DNA of 64,000 nucleotides, from NCBI GenBank assembly GCA_963778555.1, contig CAVZUR010000004.1, forward strand, positions 101,112 to 165,111, in the 5' to 3' direction. Positions 3,766 through 44,403 of this stretch are shown here, piece after piece (the first letter of the stretch is position 1; every line of letters starts with the position of its first letter). The position numbers were made by a program, and so were the translations under genes. This DNA is from Candidatus Moraniibacteriota bacterium (GTDB lineage: Bacteria; Patescibacteriota; Minisyncoccia; Moranbacterales; UBA1568). A model generated the notes under the pieces. That model saw only the letters and a program-made list of their open reading frames with translations, did no database searches and was not told the DNA's origin.

Positions 3766-4827
3766 TTAGAGACTACAGAATAACAGGCTGTCTCCGAACG
3801 AATAGAAGGCGAACTTCTCTTGAAGAGCGATCTGGTAGAGGTCCACAACCCCTTTCTTTGCAGTTTTGTCTTTGAGAAAAGCGTCGACGAGCAGCATCAG
3901 CGATGTCCGCGGAAGATGAAAATTCGTGAGCAAAACATCAACCGATCTGAAATGGTAAATGGCGGGATAGATAAACGTCTCAATCGATCCATGAAACGGC
4001 TGAAACAGGCCTTTCTGCAGCAATGGTTTCAAGTGTCCGAGCAACGGTCGTCCCCACCGCCACAATTTTATTTCCTGACTGCTTTGCAGCATTCAACCTG
4101 ATCGCTGTTCCTTCTGAAACCTCACGGACTCGCGATGCAGTTTTCTTGTTTCAAAGTTTTTTTCCGAAAGCGGAGCAAATGTCCCCAAGCCGACATCTAG
4201 CGTGATGACAGCACGCCCAATCCCTTTCGTCTCCAACGTGCTGAACACATCATCGGTAAAGTGGAGCGAAGCAGTCGGGGCCGCCACCGAAGCGCCCCTT
4301 GTCGCAAACACGGTCTGATAGCGCGCTCGAAGAACTGCTTCGTCCGGCACCCCATCGCCCTCGAGGTAATGCGGGATCGGGGTCCGACCGAACTGCCTCA
4401 AGCAATTCGAACAGCGTGCGGTCGCTGACAAGCCGAAAGTAGAATCTCTGTTCCTCTTGCTTTTCAGCGATCAGCCGGCTACTGTCAGGGAAACAGAGCG
4501 CGTCGCCGATATGAATCTTTCGATCGACCACAGCTGGGATGAGCCCTTCTCTATTCCATTCATTAACGAGGACTAAAACCTCAATTTTTCCGCCGGTCGG
4601 CTTCCGGAGCCAGAGACGCGCCGGCCAAACACGAGTATTATTGAGTACAATCACCGACCCGGCCGGTAGATAGGCAGCGACATTCCGAAAGGTATCGAAG
4701 TGCACGGAATCTGACACCGTGTCATAGACGAACAGCCGGGCGCTATCGCGCGGCTCAAGCGGCACTTTCCGGATGAGCTCGGGTGGGAGTTGATAGTCGT
4801 ACTGAGAGAGATCAGAAAAATGCATAT
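3766..4827 (-). CDS. queA: S-adenosylmethionine:tRNA ribosyltransferase-isomerase (QueA), frame interrupted at least 3 times
   Basis: N-terminal MHFSDLSQYDYQLPPELI, middle RYQTVFA..SVAAPTASLHFT..ITLDVGLGTF, then KIVAVGTTVARTLE (only in a third frame), then C-terminal LLTNFHLPRTSLMLLVDAF...YSFGDS; the pieces lie in three frames. Confidence 0.85.
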
Positions 4828-4908
4828 GTCCCACAGTATAGCAAAAAAGAAAAACGGGGCCCGTGGCGCATGGATTACATACGCCCGGTGCCCCATGAGA
4901 AGGATGAT

Positions 4909-5649
4909 TCAATCCTGAGAATGGGTTATGGCTAACCAATTCTCGTCCGTCGCTTTCGGTTTGATGGCTTCGGAGCCGATACGACAGAGTGGACACTCGT
5001 CCGCTGTCCAGTCCTGGATGCGCCGGCTCACGATCGAGAGCACGGGAAACTCGCCGTACCGTTTAACCGAAACCGCCTCCAAACCTCCGCGATTGATGAT
5101 GACCGGATTGATTCGGGTAATCTGCGCGGTTGGTGGACAAAACGACGATTCAAGGATAGCCGTGACGGCTTCAGCGAAGCCCGTTCCACGCGTGCAGAAA
5201 TCCTCGATGAGCAGCAGTTGAGATCGATCAGGAACTGGTTCCATGAGCCTGATCTTGCCGTCCACTTTCGCCAAGGTCAGGTGCGGTTTACCCAGGATTT
5301 CGGCTACCGCTCGACCCAATTGCGTCGCACCGTCCGGAATACCGGCGACATGGGTCGGTCGCTCGACATCCGCAATAACGAGTCGTTTCACCAACTGCTC
5401 GGCCAGGATCCGCCGGATGTTTTCAGCGGCGAGAAGGATGCGCGAAACAAAGAACCCGTCGCTGTGCAGGCCTGATTTGAGACTCGCGTGCAGACCAGGT
5501 TTGATCAAAGCGCGATCGTAATGGTACGTCCAAAATGCACCAAGGACGGTCGCCAAATGAAGAATTTCTTCCGGCCGTAAGCGCCGATCCACGTCAGTCG
5601 GCCTGAGTCCAAGAATACCGGCGCGGTCAAGGCGTAGGATATCGATCAT
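4909..5649 (-). CDS. pyrE: phosphoribosyltransferase, orotate PRTase-like (PRPP-binding motif LLLIEDFCTRGTG), with C-terminal CxxC tail
   Basis: PRTase type-I fold motifs and position immediately upstream of pyrF; identity as PyrE is inferred. Confidence 0.6.
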   Translation of the reverse strand: MIDILRLDRAGILGLRPTDVDRRLRPEEILHLATVLGAFWTYHYDRALIKPGLHASLKSGLHSDGFFVSRILLAAENIRRILAEQLVKRLVIADVERPTHVAGIPDGATQLGRAVAEILGKPHLTLAKVDGKIRLMEPVPDRSQLLLIEDFCTRGTGFAEAVTAILESSFCPPTAQITRINPVIINRGGLEAVSVKRYGEFPVLSIVSRRIQDWTADECPLCRIGSEAIKPKATDENWLAITHSQD

Positions 5650-11300: not shown

Positions 11301-12410
11301 CTAGTATATCATGACCGGCGTACCAATCGGCGCCCACTCGAACACGCGCCGCGCGGGACCCACGCCGAGCCGCATACAGCCGTGAGACACCGGCGTACCG
11401 AGATGATTCGCTCCCTCTTTGTAGCCGCCTGGCCATTCCGGCAGCTCATGGATGCCAAACTTCCCGTCCGGCGTAATGGCCTGCCAATAGGGCATGTACA
11501 GGCTGTACTGCTTGGACCAGGGACGTGCTGCTTTGTTGTGGATCGCAAAGTTTCCCTTGGGTGTTTCCATACCCCGCTTGCCGGACGAGATGATATAGGC
11601 ATCGACCGCCTGGCCATCCTCGAACAGTGTCATCACTTGGGTCGCGAGATTCACATCGATATATTTCCCCTCGCCTTGTTTGGCTTGCGTGAAACGCTTG
11701 GCTTCTTCGGCCCGAAGCGCAAGATTGCTGGCCGCCTGCGCCGGACGGGACGGCAGAGTGGTAAAGGCCACGGATCCGAGTGATTGATACTCCGCATCTT
11801 CATCGTTTCGGTAACGCGCCCGGATACTGAGTCGGTACGGCTTTCCGGGCTGGATAGCCTCCGACGGAAGAATCTCGAAAACGGTTTTTTCGGGATTGTT
11901 CTGGTAGACGACTGCAACCGACGGCTCAAATTGAAAGTCAATATAGAAATCCTTCACGGTACGGTCGAACGCCACTCGAATCGGATCCTCAACGCCGAGA
12001 ATCACGTCTTTCGCCTGATCGGACGGGAGTACTGAGACGAGTCGCGGCAGTTTCGGTCCGGCGAAGGCGAATGAAAATACCGGGGTACGGGCGAAGAGAC
12101 TGGTCCGCCCTTGCCCGATAACCGCTTGATATGTCGTATCCACCGTCCAGTTTCTCTCTGGCAGAATGACCAGCCGCTTCCCAAAATCGTGCCACTCGGT
12201 CCGAAACGGGATGGCTGGTGAGAGACTGATTTTTCCTGTCAAGCTCTGTTCCCGAATCGCTTTCGAGAAATCGATGACCAGCGCATCGCGCGGACCCGAC
12301 AATTCAGACGACTCCACCGCTGCCCTCACCGGCGCCTGCCGCCAATGCTCAAACGCTCCCCCGCCCAAAACAAACACCACGAGGACGAAAAAAAAGATGG
12401 ACCAGAACAA
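11301..12410 (-). CDS. L,D-transpeptidase (YkuD domain) with N-terminal TM anchor
   Basis: C-terminal catalytic motif PVSHGCMRL; intact 369 aa. Confidence 0.85.
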   Translation of the reverse strand: MFWSIFFFVLVVFVLGGGAFEHWRQAPVRAAVESSELSGPRDALVIDFSKAIREQSLTGKISLSPAIPFRTEWHDFGKRLVILPERNWTVDTTYQAVIGQGRTSLFARTPVFSFAFAGPKLPRLVSVLPSDQAKDVILGVEDPIRVAFDRTVKDFYIDFQFEPSVAVVYQNNPEKTVFEILPSEAIQPGKPYRLSIRARYRNDEDAEYQSLGSVAFTTLPSRPAQAASNLALRAEEAKRFTQAKQGEGKYIDVNLATQVMTLFEDGQAVDAYIISSGKRGMETPKGNFAIHNKAARPWSKQYSLYMPYWQAITPDGKFGIHELPEWPGGYKEGANHLGTPVSHGCMRLGVGPARRVFEWAPIGTPVMIY

Positions 12411-13315: not shown

Positions 13316-15966
<2,651 letters not shown>

Positions 15967-15974
15967 AGTCGAAA

Positions 15975-16937: not shown

Positions 16938-19900
16938 CTAGCGGCCCTGGGCGTAGAGGGCTTTAATCTCGGCGGCGGTGAGGATGCGGCTGTAGAGCCG
17001 GACTTCGTCGATGGTGCCGTCGAAGAAGCGCGTCGAGGTCGAATAACTGATGGCGAAATTCTCGGCCACATCAGTCATCGCTGTTCCGACCGGTGTGGTC
17101 AGTTCCGTGATGGTTGGAGCGACAACGCCGTTGATATAGAAGACGGGGTCATTCGCTGCTGAGGAGTTGTTGTACGTGACACAGGCATGCGTCCAGGTGT
17201 TGAGCGGGGCAGTATTACTCGTTGCCAGCCAGTCCCCGTCCGTCGTGGAGAAATACCGAAGGAACTCAAGACGAATCCCTGGACCCGTACTGTTGTCGAT
17301 AAAGAACTCCCAACCATTCGTACTCGATGATTTCCGCATGATGTTATCGAAATCGGCAGCCGTCACTGTCTCGGGATAAATCCAGGCACAACTCGTGAGA
17401 TTGACGATATCATCCATATTGGTGCCTGAGCCAGCCAATATATGATCATTCGTCCCATCAAAATTCACCCCCTGTCCGAGCTTCCCTGGAACCTTGAGCG
17501 GGCCATTGGTGAGGGTGCCCGTGTTCCTCGCTCCACTTCTGTCATACGCTGTCGTCGTGCTGTACATATCCTGGGCATTGAAGGACCAGTAGCCTTCAAG
17601 CGATGTATCGACGCCGGTGGGGGTAGTGAGGCGATAGAGGTTGGCGATCTCTTCCTGGAGAGAGCGCGGTCATACACCCGCGCTTCATCGAGGGAGCCAG
17701 CGAAGGGCACACCGTTGTCGGCTTCAGCGCCGAGACGGAAAGCCACCGCATTGGCCAGGGTGCCGATGTTTCCGATGGTGCCGGTATCGGTGGCGCCATT
17801 GGGAGCGCCATTGATGTAAAGCTCGGTCCCAGTCGCGGAGTCTTGATCCCAAACGAAGGCGAAGTGATTCCAACCCGCAGCGGTGAAGGTAGAGGCTGAA
17901 GTGACGGAGTACTCATCGACCGCATCCGAGACTTCGCAGATGAGGGCGTCGGCGGCGGAGATGTAGCAGAGATAGCCGGTATCAGCGGCGGTGATGCCGT
18001 TTCGTTTGGCGATGATGGTATCGTCGGTGGTGAAGGTAGAGCGGTTGAACCAGCCCGTCAGGGTGAAGTCTTCAGTATCGGCGAAGTCAAGAGTGGCCGT
18101 ATCGGCCGTGGTGGCATAGTCATCGGTGCCGTCAAAGGTGATGCCTGAGCCAATCTGTCCGGTGGTCCAGGTGGGGCCATTGGTGAGGGTGAGGGAAGCG
18201 ATGGCGTTGGTGGAGGAGTCAGCGGCGGCGGTACCGGTGTTCTCGTCGAGGGTGAAGTAGGCGGTGAGGCCAGAGTCGAGACGGCCGGTGCCTTGGGATT
18301 GGGAGACAGAGGAGTTCACCTTGTCGGGAGCGCTCTGGTCATACAGGGATTTGATCTCGGCAGCAGAGAGAAAACGATTGTAGACGCGGACTTCGTCGAT
18401 TTCACCGTCAAAGAACTCTGCCGCGGCAGTTTCAATGGCGCCGATACGAAAGCTCGAGGAAGCATCGGCAGGCGAAGTACCGACCGGCGTACTGTGTTCC
18501 AGCACCGGTACGGAAACACCGTTAATGAAAAAGGTTGGGTCATTGGCGACGGATGAATCATTGTATTCCACACAGACATGCGACCAGGCATTCAGCGGGA
18601 CCGCGTCATCGGGTGCAGCCCAGCGGCCGATAGTCGTCCCGAAGCCGACCCATAATTGCAGCCGATTCGGGCTGACAGTATCGCTGAATTCGAAAGTCCC
18701 ACCCCGTCCCAGCATCATCCTTGGACATGATATTGGCGTACGTGGCCGGTATCGAATCCGGATGAATCCAGGCGCAGGCGGTCAAGTTGGCGATATCGTC
18801 GAGACTCGTCCCTGAGCCAGCATTCACATAGTCTGCCGTCCCATCGAAATCAAGTGCTTGGCCGAGTCTGCCCGGTACCTTGGGCGGAGCGCTGACCAGT
18901 GTCCCCGTATTCCTCGCTCCGCTTCTGTCATACGCCGTCGTCGTGCTGTACATATCCTGCGCATTGAAGGACCAGTAGCCTTTCAAGCGCCGTATCGACA
19001 CCCGTCGGGGTACGGAGGCGGTAGAGATTGGCGAACTTCTTCGGCCGAGAGGAGCGCGGTCATAGACTCGGGTTTCATCGAGCGGAGCCAGTCGAAGGCA
19101 AACGGTTGTCGGCTTCAGCGCCGAGAGGAAAGCCACGCATTGGAAGGGTTCAGCCGCATCAGTATCCGACGGTGCCGGTATCGGTGTGCGTGCATTCGGT
19201 CAAGCGCCATTGAGGTAAAGCATCGGTATACAGTCACCGGAGTCTTGATCCCAGACGAAGGCGAAGTGATTCGAACGCCACAGACATGGCTCCAGGTATT
19301 GAGGCTGAGGTGGCGCCGACGTACTCATCGAGCCGCCATCCGAGACTCGAAAAGATTTGAGAGCATCTCAGCTTGATTACTCGATAGCAGAGATAGCTGG
19401 TATTTAACGGCGATCATACTGTATCGGCTTTGGCAAGAATGATGGTCATCGTCGGCAGCGGTGAAGGTAGAGCGGATAGAACCAGGCACACGTCAGGGTG
19501 AAGTCGTCAGATTATCGCAAAGCAAGGTGGGCGTATCCGAAAGTGATGCATAGTCATCGGTCCCATCAAAGGTCATGCCGGAGCCAATCTGACCGGTCAT
19601 CCAGGTCGGGCCACGGTGAGGGTGAGGGAAGCGATGGCGTTGGTACTGGAGTCAGCCGCGGCGGTACCGGTGTTCTCGTCGAGGGCGAAGTAGGCGGTGA
19701 GGCCAGAGTCGAGACGGCCGGTGCCTTGGGATTGGGAGACAGAGGAGTTCACCTTGTCGGGAGCACTCGTGGTCATAGAGGGCTTTGATCTCGGCGGCGG
19801 AGAGGAGGCGATTATAAACACGGACTTCGTCGATGGAGCCGTCGAAGAATTCGCTGAGATAAGTGCGCCGATGACAAGATTGGCTGCAGCATCGACATGT

Positions 19901-21259
19901 TGCTGTCCCTACCGGCACGTAAATAGCTCCGTAAAACGATACAGACGACGCCATTCATATACAAAACCGGGTCGTTGGCCAGCCGAGGAATCATTGTAGG
20001 TGACGCAGACATGTTGACCAGGCATTGATGTGGTTATCCCCCAGTTGGCCGTGAGCCAATTCGCATTAGTTCGTGGTAAAACTTCAAAATAGTATCCAGA
20101 GCATTCCCGACTAGCCACATTGCCGTAATCTGAAATGACCAGCCACGCCGATCTTGAATTACTTGGCAGCAATTTGAGCCCGAGGTAATAGGAATTGACT
20201 GTCCGGATAGATCCAGGCGCAGAACGGATAGGTTCACTAGATCATCGATGATAGCGGCTGATCCCGCATTCACCATAATCAGCCGTTCCATCAAAATTAA
20301 GCGCTTGGCCAAGTTTGCCTGGCACTTTTGGCGGGCCGCTCGTCAAGCGTCCCCGTGTTCCTCGCTCCGCTTCTGTCATACGCCGTGGTCGTGCTGTACA
20401 TATCCTGGGCATTGAAGGACCAATAGCCTTTCAAGTCCCGTATCGACGCCGGTGGGGGTAGTGAGGCGATAGAGGTTGGCGATCTCTTCTCCTGAGAGAG
20501 CGCGGTCATACACCCGCGCTTCATCGAGGGAGCCAGCGAAGGGCACACCGTTGTCGGCTTCGGCGCCGAGACGGAAAGCCACCGCATTGGCCAGGGTGCC
20601 GATGTTTCCGATGGTGCCGGTATCGGTGGCGCCATTGGGAGCGCCATTGATGTAAAGCTCGGTCCCAGTCGCCGAGTCTTGATCCCAGACGAAGGCGAAG
20701 TGATTCCAACCCGCAGCGGTGAAGGTAGAGGCGGAAGTGACGGAGTACTCATCGTGGCATCCGAGACTTCGCAGATGAGGGCGTCGGCGGCGGAGATGTA
20801 GCAGAGATAGCCGGTATCAGCGGCGGTGATGCCGTTTCGTTTGGCGATGATGGTATCGTCGGTGGTGAAGGTAGAGCGGTTGAACCAGCCGGTCAGGGTG
20901 AAGTCTTCAGTATCAGCGAAGTCAAGGGTGGCCGTATCGGCCGTGGTGGCATAGTCATCGGTGCCGTCAAAGGTGATACCTGAGCCAATCTGTCCGGTGG
21001 TCCAGGTGGGGCCATTGGTGAGGGTGAGGGAAGCGATGGCGTTGGTGGAGGAGTCAGCGGCGGCGGTACCGGTGTTCTCGTCGAGGGTGAAGTAGCCGGT
21101 GAGGCCAGAGTCGAGACGGCCGGTGCCTTGGGGGGTGGCAATGGAGGTATTGGTTTGCTGTCCGGCCCGAGCGGAGAAATACCAATAGCCAGCCCCCAAC
21201 CCTAGGAGAATGGCGATAATCCCTAGCCACTGCCATGTACGGCCGCTAGTATATGTCAT
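16938..21259 (-). CDS. giant surface protein with N-terminal TM anchor and tandem LamG_3 / concanavalin-like lectin domains; reading frame broken many times, middle repeat degenerate
   Basis: N-terminus MTYTSGRTWQWLGIIAILLGLGAGYWYF; recurring FDG(S/E)IDEVRVYNRALSAAEIKALY LamG_3 signature at the end of each repeat; ORF fragments 20297-21373, 17465-18718, 16938-17567 plus many short ones. Confidence 0.6.
17470..21130. repeat. tandem direct repeat, period about 1.4 kb, about 2.6 copies (copy 1 about 17470-18860, copy 2 about 18860-20300, copy 3 about 20300-21130); copies 1 and 3 are near-identical over about 760 bp (17540-18297 vs 20375-21130), copy 2 is highly divergent
   Basis: Landmark ...gtcatacgc(t/c)gtcgtcgtgctgtacatatcctgggcattgaaggacca... 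recurs near 17541, 18926 and 20375; a long identical stretch accgttgtcggcttcagcgccgagacggaaagccaccgcattggccagggtgccgatgtttccgatggtgccgg occurs at about 17700 and about 20536. Confidence 0.8.
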
Positions 21260-21525
21260 AGAGCTAGACCCGTTAGAGACAGGAAGCGTTTCAATCGATT
21301 CTTTAGGTAGCGTTTTCCCATACCAGTCTTTAGGTACTTTTCTCGAGTGAAAGCATCGTGCACATCGATACAAGCTTCATAATAAATGATAGCAAATGGA
21401 CCTCGGCCGTTGGTAGATGATACTTTTCCAGCAGCATGCTCATTGAAACGCTTCCGCATGTCTTCGGTACAGCCGGTATACCATTTTCCATCCTTTTTGC
21501 TTTTGAGCACGTAGGTGTAAAACAT
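21256..21525 (-). CDS. GIY-YIG nuclease family protein
   Basis: MFYTYVLKSKKDGKWYTGCTEDMRKRFNEHAAGK GIY-YIG motif; the stop overlaps the ATG of the giant surface protein (ATGA). Confidence 0.75.
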   Translation of the reverse strand: MFYTYVLKSKKDGKWYTGCTEDMRKRFNEHAAGKVSSTNGRGPFAIIYYEACIDVHDAFTREKYLKTGMGKRYLKNRLKRFLSLTGLAL

Positions 21526-21831
21526 AGCTGTCTCTAACGGGGCGAGGCGATGGCGAGGGCGCCTAAGATGAGGCCGATGTATTGGTAGGTACGATACCGA
21601 GTGAGGGACATGTGAGGTGAGGGATGAGGGACTAGGGGTGGAGAACAAGAGAAACAGGTTCCCAAGCGAGGGAGTGTGTTGGTTCTAGTTTATCATCTTA
21701 TCGAGAACGCCACATCCTCCCCACCCCTCACTTTCCACTGTTTCGACGTATTCCCACGGTCGTAGGAATAATAGAGATTACATTTTGTATGAGTATGATG
21801 AAAAACTCAGAGCCCGGTCAAAAAAATCTAC

Positions 21832-22077
21832 CTAGAGCTGGCCACTGTAAACACTCGAGAGGCCGGACAAGCTGGAGAGAATAAACGGCACCGCGAACAT
21901 GAGTACGACCAGGGGCAAGAGGACAACGGCGAGCTGCATGATGAAGCTCCAGAGCATGTACTTGCGCGTCTTCTCCACAGCCGCGTGAATGAGCTCAAGT
22001 TTTTCGTCCTGCGCTTTGATGGCAGACAGGAGAGCGGATTCATCCATAAGGATAGATAGCGCAATAGACTTACTCAC
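21832..22077 (-). CDS. small membrane protein (81 aa, C-terminal TM)
   Basis: ORF with hydrophobic C-terminal segment; its start overlaps the end of the upstream gene by 8 nt (translational coupling). Confidence 0.45.
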   Translation of the reverse strand: MSKSIALSILMDESALLSAIKAQDEKLELIHAAVEKTRKYMLWSFIMQLAVVLLPLVVLMFAVPFILSSLSGLSSVYSGQL

Positions 22078-22912
22078 TTATTGTAGCAGCATCGAGCGCA
22101 GCCGATGGCAGATTCGATTCACCCCCTCCCAAGCTGGGTTCAATTGGCGTAATTTCTGGCAATGGAATATTCAGCGGTTCGATCGGGAGCGCGTCGGGGC
22201 CAGCCGGCGGATCAATGGGCGGCGGTAGCAAATCTAGTGGGAGTACCAAAAGTAGCGGCTCAGTACCATCGGACGGACCCGGCCCGCTGGCATCCGGAAT
22301 CGTCTCCGCTGACTTCACAGCCGGTGCGCCGCCAATTGTCAGGGTCAGGTCTGGGAGCGCCGCCTCATCATCCCAGCCCGGATCCGTAGCTTCATACGGT
22401 GCTTGCCAAGCCAAGAAGGTGAAATGGACAATGCAGGATACACCAGTATCGAAAGACGCTTCCGCTGGCAGAGAAAAGATGAACTGCCACAGTTCGTCGC
22501 TACTCGGTGAGAGCAGGCTTCCGTTCACTACTCCAATACCCGCCACACTGCCGGCATACGCGGTCGAGCCAGCACGCAACGCCGAAATTTGGAGCGCCGC
22601 GCAAACACCCGCATCGCCCGTAGTTGAGACAATCGAATGGTACCGGAAGGTATTCGCGCCCTGATTCTCGACCGTGCCGCCATACTCGACGCTGCCGCCA
22701 GCAATGATTTCTGCCGGTGCGACAGGATTGCCAACCGCCCCGATCGCTGAAAGATCGATACTCCCGCCATTGATCGCGTTCATACCGGACAACGCCGAAG
22801 CCGTGTAGAGTGACCACGTATCATGCACCACCATGACCAACACAAACAACCCGACAATGCCCAGGGAAACGGTGCCAAGCGGGCGATGAATTGTATGTTT
22901 GTTTTCGGGCAT
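22070..22912 (-). CDS. membrane-anchored secreted protein with Pro-rich C-terminus (candidate anchoring or accessory protein of the SipW locus)
   Basis: N-terminal TM LGIVGLFVLVMVV, Gly/Ala-rich globular region, PPPIDPPAGPDALPIEPLNIPLPEITPIEP tail; role inferred from position only. Confidence 0.55.
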   Translation of the reverse strand: MPENKHTIHRPLGTVSLGIVGLFVLVMVVHDTWSLYTASALSGMNAINGGSIDLSAIGAVGNPVAPAEIIAGGSVEYGGTVENQGANTFRYHSIVSTTGDAGVCAALQISALRAGSTAYAGSVAGIGVVNGSLLSPSSDELWQFIFSLPAEASFDTGVSCIVHFTFLAWQAPYEATDPGWDDEAALPDLTLTIGGAPAVKSAETIPDASGPGPSDGTEPLLLVLPLDLLPPPIDPPAGPDALPIEPLNIPLPEITPIEPSLGGGESNLPSAALDAATISE

Positions 22913-22927
22913 AACGATTTCGGACGA

Positions 22928-23575
22928 CTAGACGATTTTCCGCCGCCGAATCGGGGCGGGTGGCGGGGTGACAGTCGGGCGAGGCGGCGCGACCGATCCA
23001 GCATAGACGGTTTGGGAGAAATTCACGTTTTTGACCTCGGCAACGGTTTCAGCGGCGATCGGCTGGCGGCGCTGTCGCAAGAGCCGCCTGGCTTCAGCGG
23101 CGATGGAAATGAATTCGCTCAGGATAATGAGTGCCGCCGGCACCACGATCAGCCAGATGAAGCCCGTCTTGGTCTGGGCATAGGCCACGGGATAGCCGAG
23201 GTATGGAATCGCGAGCAGCGTTTTGCCGACGATGTCTTGACGCGCCACGGTGACAGGATCCGGATCCTCATTGGCATCGCCTTGAGTGAGGAACGTCTGA
23301 CCGGTCGCCGTGTCGCGCCGCTCGATGATGCGGTGGGTGACCGACTGCTTGTCGCTCGTCGCGACGGTCACGATATCTCCGACCGCGTAGGCGGGCCGCG
23401 CCGAGACGAAGATGAGACTTCCCGTCCGAATCGCCGGCTCCATCGATCCGGACCGGACCGTGAAAAGCTTGATCGTGTTCGGTAATGGCAAGAGCGACGA
23501 GGCCATCACCAAGACGAAGCCGATGACGATGACCGCCATGAGTCCTTGCACGATGGAACCGAGGCGCTTCAGCAT
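22928..23575 (-). CDS. sipW: signal peptidase I, SipW type (S26B, archaeal/ER-like)
   Basis: VRSGSMEPAIRTGSLIFV catalytic Ser box, N-terminal TM, C-terminal TM; 215 aa. Confidence 0.85.
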   Translation of the reverse strand: MLKRLGSIVQGLMAVIVIGFVLVMASSLLPLPNTIKLFTVRSGSMEPAIRTGSLIFVSARPAYAVGDIVTVATSDKQSVTHRIIERRDTATGQTFLTQGDANEDPDPVTVARQDIVGKTLLAIPYLGYPVAYAQTKTGFIWLIVVPAALIILSEFISIAAEARRLLRQRRQPIAAETVAEVKNVNFSQTVYAGSVAPPRPTVTPPPAPIRRRKIV

Positions 23576-23590
23576 AGGCGACGGAAAACG

Positions 23591-25037
23591 TTATGGCGCG
23601 AAGGGTGTCGGGTTATTGCGATGTTGTTCGACTTCGAATTTGATATCGGCTTCGAAGATGTCGGTCTGCGCCTCATTCCCGGTCGCGATGGGCAGATTCC
23701 AGCCGATACCGAAGTAGTACGTCGTCGATGCGGCCATGCGGCCGTCTTGAGCGAGGCCATTACAGAGCGTGTAATTCGTGTGTCCATCTGGGATCGTGCA
23801 GCCATGCGCCACGTAGGCTGCCGCCAAACCCTGCCAGATATTATGCGTTTCGCTCGGAGTATCCACCGCGCCTGGAGCAACCAGTACCATCTCATCACCC
23901 TGTTGGATATTGTCACCCTCGCCGAGGTCGGTGCCCTTGCCTTGGAACCCGGGCGTGGCACCCTCGTCCAGCCAGATCGAGAAATTCAGGTTCTGGCGCA
24001 ATTCTCCGAGTCCGACGCCAGGGTACCGCGCAGTTGCCACTTTCCGCCACCTGCTCGGAACTGGTGCAGGTATTGTCATCATCGGCGGTCACGTTGACCA
24101 CCATCCGTCCCCACGCATCATTGTTGTAGACATGGAGCGACACGGTATCCTCGCCCACATCCCCTGGTTTCACATCATCGAAGTTGAAGAATTTATGCAC
24201 ACCGTTCTGGAGGTCGGTCAGATCCCACGTCCCGTCGCAGGGCTGGCCCACTAATTCGCCGCTCACCGACGTCGGGCATTCGAGCAGATGGACATCAACG
24301 GCATCGAGAAATGTCCCGAGTGAATTCTCGGTCCCGAGATCCGCAAACGAGATCTCGGTCGAGGCGCCGGTCGCGAAGAAATCATAGGTATGCAGACTCC
24401 AGTCGATTGATCCGCCGCCCGCGCTCGACAATGTGTCGAGCAGCAAGCCGTTTGCCTTCACCTCGAGTTCATTCTCCGTCGCGGCGGTATTGGGCCGCGG
24501 CGCAAACTGGAAGGAGAGACGGTATTTCTTGCCCGCGACAGTCGGGATGGACTGCGCGATGCGAATGGAGGCTGGTTCACCACTCAAGGGATCGCTCGGA
24601 CCACCCCAATCAGAATCAAGTTCCGTATACTGGTCGCCTTCGAACGCGGCGCCCAAGACGCCTTCATGGTATTCGATCGTCGCGACTGCCGGCTTGCCGC
24701 TCGGATCCACCCACTGCACGTCCCATACCAGGCCGCTCGCACCGTCAGGAAACACCTCCCACTGGTTCGGGTCGGTCACTTCCGGATTCTCAAAACCGCC
24801 GTTGACGATGAGATTACTGCCGACGGCATGACAAGGCGCGCCTTCGAGCGCCCAGACACCGCCGGTACAGACCAGCCCATTATAGTGCGACTCGCTGTCG
24901 ACTTTCAGATCAAGCGCTCCCGCGGTGAAGAGATTGCCCGTCGAAGTCTCGGTATCCGAGAAAAACGCATAGGTTCCCCCGCCGACCGCGGCCGCCGCGG
25001 CCAAGATGATGAATGAGCTTTTGGCTATTTTCCACAT
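23591..25037 (-). CDS. TasA/camelysin-like secreted protein paralogue 1 with SipW-cognate signal peptide and an inserted carbohydrate-binding-like jelly-roll domain; one frameshift near 23913-24082
   Basis: MWKIAKSSFIILAAAAAVGGGTYAFFSDTETSTGNLFTAGALDL; insert starting NGGFENPEV; shared core FFNFDDVKPGDVGEDTVSLH and a C-terminal VEQHRNNP motif. Confidence 0.75.
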
Positions 25038-25086
25038 ACGCTTTCGATTTAGGATTATTCCCTCCGGCCCCGCAACCACGTCCGCG

Positions 25087-26421
25087 CTACGGTGATACGC
25101 CTGTCACACTCACTCCATCGATATACGCATGATTGGTCCCGTTCGTCCCGACGAGGACAAAGCGGACTTTGACACTTGGCTTATTGTCAGCCGCAGGCGA
25201 GAGTGAGAACGTCTTGGTCGTCCAGCCCGACTCGCCGATGACGGTCTCGAGCGTGGTCCACGACGTTCCGCCATTGACCGAATACTCAACCGTCAGCGTT
25301 TGGGGATCGACGGCACCGCCCGTATCGTCTGTCTTACGGTCATACTTGAGCACGATAGTGTGATAGCCGAGCGTGCTGAAGCCCGGGGTCACGAGCGACT
25401 CGGTGTGGCCGTTCGAACTCGAGGCATCGAGATCGGCATTCTTGGTACACTCCCGCTTCTCTTCATCTTTGTCATCGTCATACCCGCCTCGATTGGTCCA
25501 CTTTTTGTGCCACGAACGTTCGTACTCCTTGTCTTTGGATTTCACGCACTGGTTGAAGTCCTCAGAGAAGAGGGTCGAAGTCGTCGTTTCCGGCGGCTCC
25601 TCGCCGCTGCCACCGCTGCACAGGAATGAATTGTTGCGCGACTGCGCTACCGTAAAGGACACATCCGCCGTGATACCATCGCTTTGAACATGATTGCCGA
25701 CGGGCGCGCCATCACAGGTGAAGCCTGTTCCACGGACCAATGGGCCGTTGGTGCTCCCCGCCAATTTTCCTTTGCCATCTTGCGCTTTCGGCGCCCCGGC
25801 CAAAATGCCGAAACACCAGGCCTTGCCGATATACTTTGTCACCTCTGGCGCCAAGGGCCCCGATCCGCCCCAAACATTGTGTGTAGAATCCGCCAGTGGC
25901 CACAAGGCACCGTCAAAGATATCTTTCGCCAAACCTTCCTTGAAAATCGTTTCTCCGCTCTCATACACATTGTCGCCATCGTCCGCCCAGAAAGAGAAGT
26001 ACAGATGGTTCTGCAATTCGCCGTCATTGGCGCCAGTGGTCGGATCGACGGACACTTCCGGTTCGGGCTGACCATTCTCCGGCGTCGATTGGAAATCAAT
26101 CGCCATGCAGCTCCAGGCCTTGTTATTCAAAACATGCAAGGAAATCGTATCCTCGCCGATATCCCCCGGCTTCACGTCGAGAAAATTGAAGAAGAGTTTG
26201 CCCGCGAGCTTGCCGAGTTGCCACGATGTCGCCGGACTGGCAACGAGTTTGCCGTCATCATTCGTGACATAGGATTCATTATCGACTTTCAGCTCGATCA
26301 CGCCCGAGGCAAAGGTATTGCCGACAGACGTCTCTTGGTCGACGAAGAAGGAGTACGTCCCCGCCCCGGCGGCGGTCGCGACCAGGAGTACCGTGAAGAG
26401 TCCTTTCGTTATCTTCCACAT
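25087..26421 (-). CDS. TasA/camelysin-like secreted protein paralogue 2 (intact, 444 aa) with C-terminal beta-sandwich-like extension
   Basis: MWKITKGLFTVLLVATAAGAGTYSFFVDQETSVGNTFASGVIEL; core FFNFLDVKPGDIGEDTISLH ... AQSRNNSFLC; about 150-aa extra C-terminal domain. Confidence 0.8.
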   Translation of the reverse strand: MWKITKGLFTVLLVATAAGAGTYSFFVDQETSVGNTFASGVIELKVDNESYVTNDDGKLVASPATSWQLGKLAGKLFFNFLDVKPGDIGEDTISLHVLNNKAWSCMAIDFQSTPENGQPEPEVSVDPTTGANDGELQNHLYFSFWADDGDNVYESGETIFKEGLAKDIFDGALWPLADSTHNVWGGSGPLAPEVTKYIGKAWCFGILAGAPKAQDGKGKLAGSTNGPLVRGTGFTCDGAPVGNHVQSDGITADVSFTVAQSRNNSFLCSGGSGEEPPETTTSTLFSEDFNQCVKSKDKEYERSWHKKWTNRGGYDDDKDEEKRECTKNADLDASSSNGHTESLVTPGFSTLGYHTIVLKYDRKTDDTGGAVDPQTLTVEYSVNGGTSWTTLETVIGESGWTTKTFSLSPAADNKPSVKVRFVLVGTNGTNHAYIDGVSVTGVSP

Positions 26422-26507
26422 ACGCTACCGTTACAGTTTATTTCGGTTTCCCCCGTGCCACCGCCGGGATTGTTCCGGCGGATGGCATGAGGCAAAGATC
26501 ATTCAGA

Positions 26508-27984
26508 TTAGTTCTCGAAGTCGGTCGTTTCGCCGTTGAATTCGACCCAGTCCACGAAGCTGTTTTCACCAATCGGACCAGGGTGGCCCACCCGCACGCC
26601 GAGGAAGGAGTCGGTTGAGCGCGTTTCCGCGCCAGGATAATCGGCTAGGATCTGATTCCAGGTTTTCGGTGTCGTACCAGGCTGCACGTTCGGAGCCGGC
26701 CAATTGGCGCCGGAGTAGGTCCACAGGGCCGTGCCACCGTTGATAGCATCCACGGTCGTCCACGTGTTGACGACTACGCCGGTCGGCACCATCACGAGAC
26801 GGCGCTGAAACGTGTCGCTATTGTTGAAGTCGATATTGAAGTGGAGGAAGGGCGTCTCGGCGGAAGCTGAGGCGTCATAAATCCGATACTTCAAAGAATT
26901 AATATTAGCGAGCTTCACATCCTTGTACTTGTAGGTCGCGATGTTGTAGCGCGGATTGATACCAGTATCTAGGGTCATCTGTGCCGCGCCAACCGCTTCC
27001 GGACCAGCGACGATGTTATTCACGCCGCCGGTTCCGCTGAATTGGTTGAGCGTCATGACTGTGTCGTTGGTGTCATTGTAGAAGAGCCACTTGTTCACAT
27101 TGCCGATAACATCGCCAAAGCTCTGGGCCAGATCGACCCGAGCGAACTTCCACGATGCCGCTTTGGCCGACAAAGGTCGGGAGCGAAGAACAAAGAAAGC
27201 CGGGATTATTGCGAGTCTGCACGGCATAGAACGAGACATCCGCGAGGATACCGTCGGTCTGCGCGATGTTATTGTTGCCCGAGCCGTTGCAGGCATAGCC
27301 AGTACCGCGGACAAGCGGTCCATTACTCCCGGTCTTGCCCAGCCCGTCTTGATTGATTGGCACACCGATCAGGGTCCCAAAGCACCAGGCCTTGCCGACA
27401 TAGCGCGTCGAGTTGCCGAGTATCGGCGTCCCGTTCAAGGAATCCGCGACCGGCACCCAGACGCCATTCAAGAGATTGCTCGCGGTCCCGACCCACTGCG
27501 TGATCTGGGACTCATCCGCCTCATAGACATTGTCCCCGTCGTCGTTCCAGAACGCGAAGTTGAGGAAATTCTGCAATTCTCCACCCTGTGCACCATCCGT
27601 CACGTCGCCCGCGTCGCCTTCCGGTTCATTGATGCCGTTATCCGGCTTGGCCGTGATGGCTGCGGTCATGCAGGCGTAGGCGTCATTCGTGCCCGGATGA
27701 AGCGAGATAGTGTCCTCGCCGATGTCGCCAGGCTTCAGGTCGCTGAAACTGAAGAACAGTTGATTGGTCACATCCGACAAAGCCCACGAGTTCGTCGGGC
27801 TCGCCACCAAGACACCCGCGTTATTCGTCACATAGCTCTCATTGTCGATCGTCAAATCGATGTCTCCGGCCGTGAAAGTGTTACCGGTCGACGTTTCACT
27901 GTCCGAAAAGAACGAATATGTCGCTCCGCCCACCGTAATCGCTACCGCCAGTACGACGAGACTGCTTTTCAGGATTTTACCCAT
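26508..27984 (-). CDS. TasA/camelysin-like secreted protein paralogue 3; the C-terminal extension domain is probably joined through a frameshift near 27130-27190
   Basis: MGKILKSSLVVLAVAITVGGATYSFFSDSETSTGNTFTAGDIDL; core FFSFSDLKPGDIGEDTISLH ... VQTRNNPGFLC; downstream overlapping ORF 26508-27365 encodes a further domain. Confidence 0.7.
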
Positions 27985-28446
27985 ATGCGCGCTTACGGAT
28001 TATGAACCTCTGATCCCGCGCCACTCCGGGACGATCCCGGAATGACGCAAGGTGAGAAGCGGCTTCTCCCCTCCCAGAAGAAACTCTCAGAAAACCTAGA
28101 CTCGGCTGCCAAGAGAACTACAACTGCTGGATGTACAAAGTTCGTAATTCGCACGTGACGTTTCACCGGCTAGACATTATTGTTGCGGTACCGTATCGCC
28201 GACTTCCGGCGTCGCATTCCGCTGAACGTGCATAGACAGGTTAGGATTTCCCGCCAGGATCACTCAGAATAGACCTCGGACAACGTATAGACACCAGTGG
28301 TAAGTAGCCATGTGACGTCGCATTACCTGTCAATACCACAGATGAGCGCCTGGGCCCATCAGCTGTAAGTGTGAAGTCAGCGTCAACGCCTACGATTTCT
28401 GGCTGGAAGTAACAATCTTATCAAGGTCACTCGTACGCTGTTTCGT

Positions 28447-29883: not shown

Positions 29884-30814
29884 TCAAAACCCGACGAGCT
29901 GTACTTCCTCGCGTAACTGGACACCTGAATCGGTTCGGACCCGTTGTTTCACCAGACTCGCCAGCATGATGACGTCTTCGGTCGTAGCGGTGCCCGTATT
30001 CACGAGATAGTTCGGATGGCGCGGACTGATCTGGGCGCCGCCGACTTTCTCGCCGCGCAGCCCCGCGCGATCGATGAGCCAACCGGCCGGGAGTTTGCCG
30101 TCTTTCGCCGCCATTCCGGTATCCTGGGCGAATTCCGTCCGAAGTGTCTCGTCCACGACCGTCGGATTCATGAAGAATGATCCGGCACACAACGCCTTCT
30201 GCGGATGTTTGGCTTCGCGCTTGGCCAATGTCTCCTCTGAAATGCGATGCAATTCCGATGCGTCGCCCTCCGCGAGACGCAGCTGCGCTGAGAGGATGAC
30301 GAATTCCGGATGCGTTTTGAAAAAGCTGGTCCGATACTGAAAGTCGCATTCCGACTGGGAAAACTCTTTCAATGCTCTCGATTTGCGATCATAGGTTTTC
30401 ACGTTGACCACCCGATTGCCGATCTCCATCCCGAAAGCCCCAGCATTGCCCGCGCAGTGCGCCGCCCACAGACCCCGGGATGCCGGCGAGCCGCTCCAAA
30501 CCGGCGAGACCATGACTATTGACCAGCTCGACGAGCGCAAGCAGATTCGCCCCCGCATCAGTGTAGATGTCCTGACCCGCGATCCGCGACGCGGCATTTG
30601 CGACCCGGATCACAAGCCCCCGGAAACCACGGTCAGCGATGAGGAGATTGCTCCCGCCAGAAAAGACGAAAGTCTTCAGTCCATTGTGCTCCGCGTATTC
30701 CAGCGCTTCGATGAGCTCCGGTGCCGTCGTCACGGAAACGAAAAAATCGGCCGCCCCGCCGAGGCGGAAGGTAGTAAACGGCGCCAACGGGACCTCTCGT
30801 TCGATGGATAGCAT
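29884..30814 (-). CDS. murB: UDP-N-acetylenolpyruvoylglucosamine reductase (MurB), one frameshift near 30390-30600
   Basis: N-terminal PLAPFTTFRLGGAADFF...SGGSNLL and C-terminal MurB domain in the adjacent frame. Confidence 0.85.
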
Positions 30815-43191: not shown

Positions 43192-44403
43192 TTATTTTAT
43201 TTCACGCTGATAGACTGAGAAGCGTTTGATAATAGCTTCTGGTCGGGCATCAGCGACACTCGCATAGCGCCTGGGCAAGCTGGCTGGCTCAGGGTACAGC
43301 ATCAGGTTCCGGATCGCTCCGAACGAGGTCGGTGCGTCCCCTGGCTGGAAGAGAAAGCCGTTTTCACCTTCCCGGATACGTTCTGACAAACCGCCAATAT
43401 CGTGCCGCAATCACCGGTTCCCGCGTGAGAGCACTTTCAGAAGCACATAGGGCAAATTCTCATACCAAATCGACGGCACGATGATCGCCTTCGCTCGCTG
43501 CAACGCAGATTCCCACGCCGACCCGGTCTGAGTAGCCAAGGAACTCGATCGCATGGAATACTTTTCGCTTGTTCCCGGAGCATCGGATTCTTCGGGCCCG
43601 GCTCCCGATAATCCGCAACGTCACATCTCCCGGCATCAGTACCAACGGCCTCGATTAGCGTCGCGACGCCTTTTTCTCGGAGAAGCGGCCGAAAAAAAGA
43701 AACGTGGCTTTTTCCCGTACGACTGTCTTTGTTGGCTTCAGAGAGGCGCAGGCGGATTTGGCAGAGATGACGAATCGGGTAGGGAAAACCGGCATCGCCT
43801 TGAACCTTTCGATGAAAAAGCGGCTCGGCGCGATGAAGAGAGTCGACTTTTCCGATAACTCCCAAAAACATGATGTAACCAGCCTTCAGCGCGCACACGA
43901 CGGCTTTTTCAACGAGAGAATCCTTAACGCAGCGATCGAAGATACAGCGAGGCCGGTCGTATGTTCCCATATCTTCCCGCGCACAAACAGGTTATAATTG
44001 GGAGAGACGAGCTTGTAGTCGTGCAGCGTCATCACGATCGGGATGCCGCGTTTTTTCAGAGGCCAGAAAATAGAGGGTGATAGCTGATGATAGATATTGT
44101 GAAATGCGCGATGTCCGGCTGGAAGTCATCGAATGAGCTTCTCCAGTTTCTTCTTGGCGTCGAAATTAAGAAGATACGTATCCTGCGAGAGCGAAATCTT
44201 TGCCCAAGTCGATAGATCATATCCTGATACTCGATATTTGCGATAAAATATTTTTCCCAAGGAGTCTCCGGATTCTCCGGATGCCGCATCGAGAAAAAAG
44301 CGACCCGTGGCCATGTTCCGCGAGCATCCGTGCCATATCGAAATAAGCGCGTTCCGCTCCACCTTTCAGAAAATGGATATTTGTTGATGAGAAGAATTTT
44401 CAT
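43192..44403 (-). pseudogene. glycosyltransferase family 4 gene fragmented by many frameshifts
   Basis: N-terminal MKILLINKYPF (44403), internal pieces in ORFs 44126-44362 and 43437-43970, C-terminal GGLSERIREGENGFLFQPGD (43192-43410); at least 6 frame changes. Confidence 0.6.

Follow-up and report, generated by a model that had tools for sequence, protein, structure and literature searches.

We analysed a 64,000-nucleotide (nt) stretch of a Candidatus Moraniibacteriota contig (CAVZUR010000004.1, positions 101,112 to 165,111; hereafter the window), and in particular a LamG-repeat gene lying on its minus strand. Judged from its sequence, this gene is very probably an ordinary and probably intact one, and its broken reading frames would come from a locally unpolished, error-prone consensus rather than from decay. 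The breaks occur across the whole window and cluster in the LamG gene, where they are dominated by insertions and deletions (indels) in one domain, B1, and they are missing from a cleaner version of the gene on public record. An initial annotation had called a LamG_3 surface protein, which is correct, and had suggested either a decaying adhesin or a repeat that was collapsed or poorly polished in assembly. It is the poorly polished consensus that agrees with what we found: essential single-copy genes broken in the same way, three insertions relative to an independent assembly, and the cleaner version of the gene itself.

With its frames corrected, the gene encodes a product of about 1416 amino acids (aa), consisting of an N-terminal transmembrane (TM) anchor and six Laminin_G_3 domains arranged as three times an A and a B half; read from 21259 down to 16938 the order is TM anchor-A1-B1-A2-B2-A3-B3 (Table 1). 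The TM start, MTYTSGRTWQWLGIIAILLGLGAGYWYF, begins at 21259, exactly where it had been placed, and the stop codon is at 16938-16940. The three tandem units of about 1.4 kb also hold: direct repeats are spaced 1386-1448 nt and 2835 nt apart, and the units measure 1402, 1433 and 1355 nt when their borders are set by the motif anchors GTGRLDSGL, GYWSFN and AAEIK.LY. Tandem Repeats Finder returned no rows for the array because the repeat period exceeds its 500-nt maximum. Pfam recognises Laminin_G_3 throughout, including in the frame-corrected translations, though with two domains in each unit and not the one per copy first described. In single-domain scans PF13385 scores 95.7 bits for A1, 86.2 for the clean B1, 54.6 for the frame-corrected A2 of the window, 93.3 for B2 and 89.4 for B3, all above the cut-off of 27.6 bits, and each of these five spans positions 1-151 or 2-151 of the 151 in the model; A3 aligns to positions 1-147 inside its open reading frame (ORF), and B3 is matched in its raw ORF as well.

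The two kinds of half differ in how they end and in how far they have diverged. The ending FDG(S/E/T)IDEV(R), at first attributed to each copy, belongs to the B halves, which terminate in FFDG(S/E/T)IDEVR(V/L)Y.R.L.AAEIK(A/S)LY, whereas the A halves terminate in DEARVYDRALSGEEIANLY. Likewise, the near-identity reported for copies 1 and 3 holds for the A halves, with A1 and A3 97.6% identical over 700 nt with 3 one-nt gaps and sub-blocks of the A copies 98-99% identical, but not for the three B halves, which are mutually 64-68% identical in nt. In the cleaner version, essentially identical A domains stand beside divergent B cores, which suggests either that gene conversion acts on A only or that B has been diversified. 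We roughly estimate the homogenised stretch, which runs from the end of one B through the linker and A into the start of the next B, at about 950 nt, and the divergent B cores between these stretches at about 450 nt.

More than ten breaks of the frame had been counted initially, which understates the damage. We used a frameshift-aware protein-to-DNA alignment, with a hand-corrected unit 3 as the first template and a full-length composite built from the cleaner public sequences as the second; the composite reveals 32 frameshifts and about 5 in-frame stops. All but 3 of the frameshifts fall within 1456 of the 4322 nt of the gene (18981-20436), at 19.9 per kb (29/32; binomial P=3e-11), compared to 1.05 per kb in the remaining 2866 nt. 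A codon-usage hidden Markov model (HMM) trained on the confident genes of the window, substituted for a longest-open-frame map that is too insensitive at 55% GC, independently finds 18985-20436 to be without a consistent frame. The dense lesions of a degraded second copy, as first reported, are real, but the stretch so described was out of register: 18981-20436 comprises the B half of unit 1 and the A half of unit 2.

The cleaner version comes from the public protein collection. The broken LamG ORFs of the window itself (P0003, P0027 and P0128) are present there, on a 402,909-bp NCBI/ENA contig, and the 90% cluster of P0003 also contains P0121 (328 aa) and P0122 (899 aa); the contig given for these two is likewise 402,909 bp long. 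P0121 consists of the TM anchor and A1 and stays in frame as far as AYDR; P0122 consists of B1-A2-B2-A3. Taken together they give TM-A1, a frameshift, B1-A2-B2-A3 and a second frameshift, at which P0122 ends, both frameshifts lying at the motif AYDRS|GARNTG (in B1 and in B3). In our own back-translation the out-of-frame tail of P0121 overlaps the TTG start of P0122, so that the two look like neighbouring ORFs of one locus with a single frameshift between them. In this version B1 is intact, and the A2 protein sequence is identical to A1 and A3. Identical outer copies around a degraded inner one had seemed odd for concerted evolution, but the oddity goes away here, with all three A copies essentially identical. 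When P0121 and P0122 were searched against the window with tblastn, all matches fell within 16.9-21.3 kb, with no second copy in the window. A query with the clean B1 brought up no independent fragment that spans the damaged stretch.

Comparison with this version separates the patch sharply from the rest of the gene. Within B1 there are 16-17 frameshifts against only about 4-10 isolated aa changes relative to P0122, and the differences are almost solely small insertions. The patch as a whole carries a net gain of 70 nt, and its lesions are thus insertion-biased. Outside it, 756 of the 759 checkable residues are identical to P0121/P0122 (those of the anchor, A1, B2 and A3, and the initial 20 of B3, beyond which B3 is without an independent template). 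As a control, B2 and B3, which are intact and have diverged to 64% nt identity, differ by 1 non-triplet gap, compared to 13 between A2 and A1. The excess of indels over substitutions, the insertion bias and the sharp boundary are the pattern of consensus error and unlike natural decay, in which lesions would be spread over the gene and substitutions would outnumber indels; the LamG gene shows neither.

These numbers bear directly on whether the window copy is a real pseudogene, that is, a decaying duplicate of the intact paralog P0121/P0122, with gene conversion keeping the outer parts alike while the B1-A2 core decays. The shared contig size of 402,909 bp is compatible with a second locus, and A2, with its many substitutions, its mild GC-to-AT excess and its in-frame stops, is what such a reading would lead one to expect, as is the randomness of its changes relative to family conservation, which neutral decay also predicts. 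However, B1, with far more frameshifts than aa substitutions, shows the opposite of the natural mutation spectrum, and after a first frameshift the whole gene should decay, yet the outer parts are almost unchanged and hold 3 frameshifts. Moreover, like lesions break SecA, MurB and QueA, none of which can be a pseudogene, and lesions of the window are confirmed as insertions against an independent assembly. We therefore consider a pseudogene quite unlikely, and with lesions confined to one 1.46-kb patch, indel-dominated in B1, and only 3 of 759 residues differing outside it, the decaying adhesin finds no support. We also think it very unlikely that the window copy represents a real second paralog whose B1-A2 cassette is under localised indel-rich mutation, or whose old core has decayed while gene conversion keeps its flanks identical to the intact paralog; were it so, the gene would be a pseudogene that is partly 'rescued', or would serve a bacterium of the Candidate Phyla Radiation (CPR) as a reservoir cassette for varying its surface protein.

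The A2 domain differs from B1 in the kind of damage it carries. Compared to A1 it has 164 substitutions (76.6% identity) and 16 gaps, the substitutions starting from C in 65 cases, G in 42, A in 36 and T in 21, with 70 GC-to-AT changes against 42 in the other direction. In an alignment with the A domains of 38 close family members, we considered the 75 columns where the window A2 departs from A1. In these the mean family frequency is 0.50 for the A1 residue and 0.075 for the window-A2 residue, where chance would give 0.05; a rare residue replaces the family-majority one in 41 columns, and the reverse is seen in 3. Because the A2-specific residues match the family only near chance level, the window A2 is a randomised A1-like sequence rather than a diverged paralog still in function. 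When the sequence peculiar to the window A2 was searched against 5.8 billion proteins, no independent sequence in support of it was found.

The breaks are not specific to the LamG gene, and essential genes have not stayed intact. Compared to six CPR SecA references, SecA (13318-15972, minus strand) runs through frames -2 and -3, a garbled stretch at about 13790-13940, and then frames -1 and -2, making about 5 disruptions, and at least its N-terminal 274-aa fragment is annotated publicly as a protein of its own (P0123). In MurB (29884-30814, minus) the frame of FAD_binding_4 is not that of MurB_C, and QueA (3766-4996, minus) is spread over at least 4 ORFs in 3 frames. A single-copy GT4 glycosyltransferase gene (43192-44403, minus) is in at least 8 pieces by Pfam and ORF reading, local templates being unusable there. 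Frame switches number 9 in kb 13, 13, 7 and 8 in kb 19-21, 9, 9 and 13 in kb 42-44, and 9 in kb 47, and mostly 0-3 per kb elsewhere; MurC, MurG, FtsW, TrmD and another GT4 gene are intact. Around the broken GT4 gene, kb 42-45 form a second dense-error patch, with 31 frame switches in 3 kb of non-repetitive DNA, and a possible methyltransferase fragment lies nearby on the plus strand.

For an independent assembly we used two short Logan contigs of run ERR11593397, which come from the same population and neither of which spans the LamG gene. One (L082) matches 33695-31652 of the window at 99.76% identity with no gaps, covering part of MurC, all of MurG and part of FtsW. The other (L083) matches 13347-10855 at 99.1% identity over 2493 nt, and against it the window has three frame-breaking 1-nt insertions, at about 12437, 10979 and 10957. 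Through the first, a YkuD-domain gene (window ORF 11301-12410) loses its start, and the other two lie in the gene that follows it downstream (about 10.8-11.3 kb). These insertions resemble the LamG lesions in being small and insertion-biased. Thus frame-breaking indels of the window are missing from the independent assembly at the L083 insertions, just as B1 is intact in P0122.

A plausible course of events would be as follows. The contig would be an error-prone, probably long-read-derived consensus with small, mostly insertion-type indels, a background of about one error per kb and several much worse patches. One such bad patch, a single repeat period long (B1+A2), would sit in the middle of the LamG array, where reads may not have been reliably placed or usable for polishing, leaving the consensus near raw-read quality. 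Unreliable placement would follow from the near-identity of the A copies to one another, and from the presence on record of another, almost identical version of the gene. Most errors that remain after polishing are known to lie in repeat regions (PMC8812927), and long-read assemblies are known to suffer from frameshifted genes (PMC9262707; bioRxiv 10.1101/2021.08.23.457338).

Several points weigh against the consensus-error explanation. The A2 half carries 23% substitutions besides its indels, far above B1 and beyond the normal error of a polished consensus, so that the reads would have to be very poor in this segment, or the consensus garbled, to account for it; this is the cause we favour. 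Polishing with reads from A1 and A3 could have made the A2 of the clean version too homogeneous. P0121/P0122, on a contig of equal size, may represent a second locus rather than a second version, which would in principle allow the window copy to be a damaged paralog in its own right. The SecA N-terminal fragment and the flanking genes have no variant twin in their protein clusters. The clean stretches of the window mean that the error process is patchy. Finally, the comparison is one of assembled sequences and proteins.

The repeat structure also raises the possibility of a structural mis-assembly. On this reading B1+A2, the middle period, would be an extra unit, artefactual or chimeric, stitched together from one or a few noisy reads or from a strain living alongside, and the array shown would differ from the true one in copy number or order. 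In length the damaged zone comes to about one repeat period, with both edges at the homologous L(E/K)|GYWSFN junction; the A copies are similar enough to invite mis-joins, and family members usually have only 2-3 LamG domains. The coincidence of the edges is weak evidence, however, given one frameshift per roughly 50 nt inside the zone, and a segment from a foreign strain should resemble a functional domain, which A2 does not. The cleaner version independently gives TM-A1-B1-A2-B2-A3-B3 with the same distinctive B1, from which it follows that the three units and the unique B1 are real. We thus regard such a mis-assembly as unlikely, and there is no indication of the collapsed repeat put forward initially, both versions showing three units.

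Programmed or targeted variation, whether by phase-variable frameshifting, as the target of a diversity-generating retroelement (DGR) or through an alternative genetic code, has next to no chance of explaining the breaks. CPR surface proteins are frequent targets of diversification systems, but the same lesions are found in SecA, MurB and QueA, and the few break sites readable in DNA (the three against L083, and A1 against A3) are mostly outside simple repeats or homopolymers. A DGR target was rejected since the A1-to-A2 substitutions start from all four bases and are not adenine-specific, and since the 16 gaps are at odds with DGRs, which make no indels. An alternative genetic code was rejected as well, with TAA, TAG and TGA each ending confident genes of the window.

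Table 1. Features of the LamG gene in the window (positions on the forward strand of the window).
Feature	Position	Strand	Basis and remarks
Whole LamG gene	16938..21259	-	Three-frame reading, frameshift-aware alignment to the composite template, and Pfam
Unit 1	19726..21127	-	1402 nt
Unit 2	18293..19725	-	1433 nt
Unit 3	16938..18292	-	1355 nt
N-terminal 44 aa: short cytoplasmic stub, TM anchor (WQWLGIIAILLGLGAGYWYF), linker	21128..21259	-	100% identical to P0121
Domain A1 (Laminin_G_3)	20426..21127	-	2 isolated frameshifts (~20755, ~20435); else 99.6% aa identity to P0121
Domain B1 (Laminin_G_3)	19726..20425	-	16-17 frameshifts, net +25 nt; aa between breaks nearly identical to the intact B1 of P0122
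Domain A2 (Laminin_G_3, degraded)	18978..19725	-	12 frameshifts, 4 in-frame stops, net +45 nt; 76.6% nt identity to A1
Domain B2 (Laminin_G_3)	18293..18977	-	1 internal frameshift (~18695); 100% aa identity to P0122
Domain A3 (Laminin_G_3)	17592..18292	-	1 frameshift (~17662, at ALS|(G/Q)EEIANLY)
Domain B3 (Laminin_G_3)	16938..17591	-	Intact; ends ...AAEIKALYAQGR and stop
Low-quality patch (B1+A2), 1456 nt, about one repeat period	18981..20436	.	29/32 frameshifts; binomial P=3e-11

The LamG gene is flanked by genes for an S30AE protein (16.4 kb) and a GIY-YIG protein. Its start codon at 21259 shares an ATGA (21259-21256) with the stop of the latter, a small gene of the GIY-YIG nuclease family (21256-21648, minus) directly upstream, whose stretch the codon-usage HMM labels as non-coding and whose composition is maybe atypical for the window. 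A cluster of secretion and surface genes (22070-28000, minus) adjoins the LamG gene, with a 280-aa ORF that has no Pfam match (22070-22912, minus), a SipW-like ORF of signal peptidase size (22928-23575, minus) and a camelysin/Peptidase_M73-like ORF (27073-27984, minus); the last is overlapped by a same-strand ORF (26508-27365), which may be another frameshift. Further along are the division and cell-wall genes MurB-MurC-MurG-FtsW, followed by TrmD (29.9-35.2 kb, minus), intact except for MurB.

There are practical consequences for anyone using this genome. The public record lists the LamG fragments (P0003, P0027, P0128 and others) as separate proteins, and an error-dense patch of this kind could be mistaken for pseudogenisation or for unusual repeat evolution. 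With SecA, MurB and QueA broken in the same assembly, any inference of pseudogenes or gene loss from this genome needs checking at the level of reads.

Compared to residual long-read indel errors as they are generally known, the lesions look familiar in most respects: they are small indels that break genes into pieces, essential genes among them, and they are patchy, worst in a repeat and missing from an independent assembly. They are atypical in that most of the sites readable in DNA, in the LamG gene and the window, are not changes in homopolymer length, in their bias to insertions, and in the 23% substitutions of the A2 half.

As for the protein, the locus reads as a genuine gene, probably intact, of a Patescibacteria (CPR) host; its product would be extracellular, anchored in the membrane by the N terminus, with six concanavalin-A-like/LamG (PF13385) beta-sandwich domains. 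The likeness to Laminin_G_3 runs through the domains from end to end, though such a match alone gives no catalytic or ligand specificity. The best match to a solved structure by sequence is a weak one, to an S-layer domain-containing protein (4qvs_A, E=7e-7). A pilin-type N-terminus (PF07963, N_methyl) was rejected, as the N-terminal 277 aa match Laminin_G_3 only in Pfam, and PF07963 is carried only by distant LamG matches such as P0194, P0228 and P0243. SecA is 62-68% identical to relatives from metagenome-assembled genomes (MAGs) labelled Uhrbacteria, Peribacteria and similar, and this places the host among the Patescibacteria. A scan of contigs based on SecA found relatives at 68% identity or below only, none of them conspecific, and a LamG homolog beside SecA in 0 of 80 loci. 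Concanavalin/LamG proteins are among the attachment factors of CPR cell surfaces (PMC11310336), and on the strength of this literature and of the fold family a role in binding glycans or surfaces of host or partner cells is likely, which would make the corrected six-domain gene a reasonable candidate for attachment to a host or partner.

A search with the A+B unit gave 428 matches at E<=1e-3, many covering 99-100% of the unit, mostly in Patescibacteria MAGs, with E-values down to 1e-172 and, where a source name is given, the name 'LamG domain-containing protein'. The closest relative other than the gene itself is P0001, intact and 73% identical, on a JGI metagenome contig where it is followed by an exonuclease VII gene. 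Full-length homology, the anchor and the linkers between domains all place the gene in this CPR family. With its members (for example P0005, P0105 and P0026, so named by NCBI in Moraniibacteriota/Moranbacteria MAGs) it shares the N-terminal anchor with ...GGYWYF.. (conserved also in P0006 and P0012), the A-type signature GWFNR.TFTTDDTIIAKRNG ... GAE(A/S)D.G.PF.G.LDE.R.Y.RALS, the linker LYRLT.PTGVDT.L.GYW.F and the B-type ending FDG.IDEVR.YNR.LSA.EIK.LY. It departs from them in size, since the top matches are 480-780 aa long with 2-3 LamG domains, whereas the window gene has six in about 1416 aa, its A+B unit being tandemly triplicated with the A halves homogenised (98-99% in nt) and the B cores divergent (64-68%). 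This six-domain expansion is the one real peculiarity of the LamG gene in the window.

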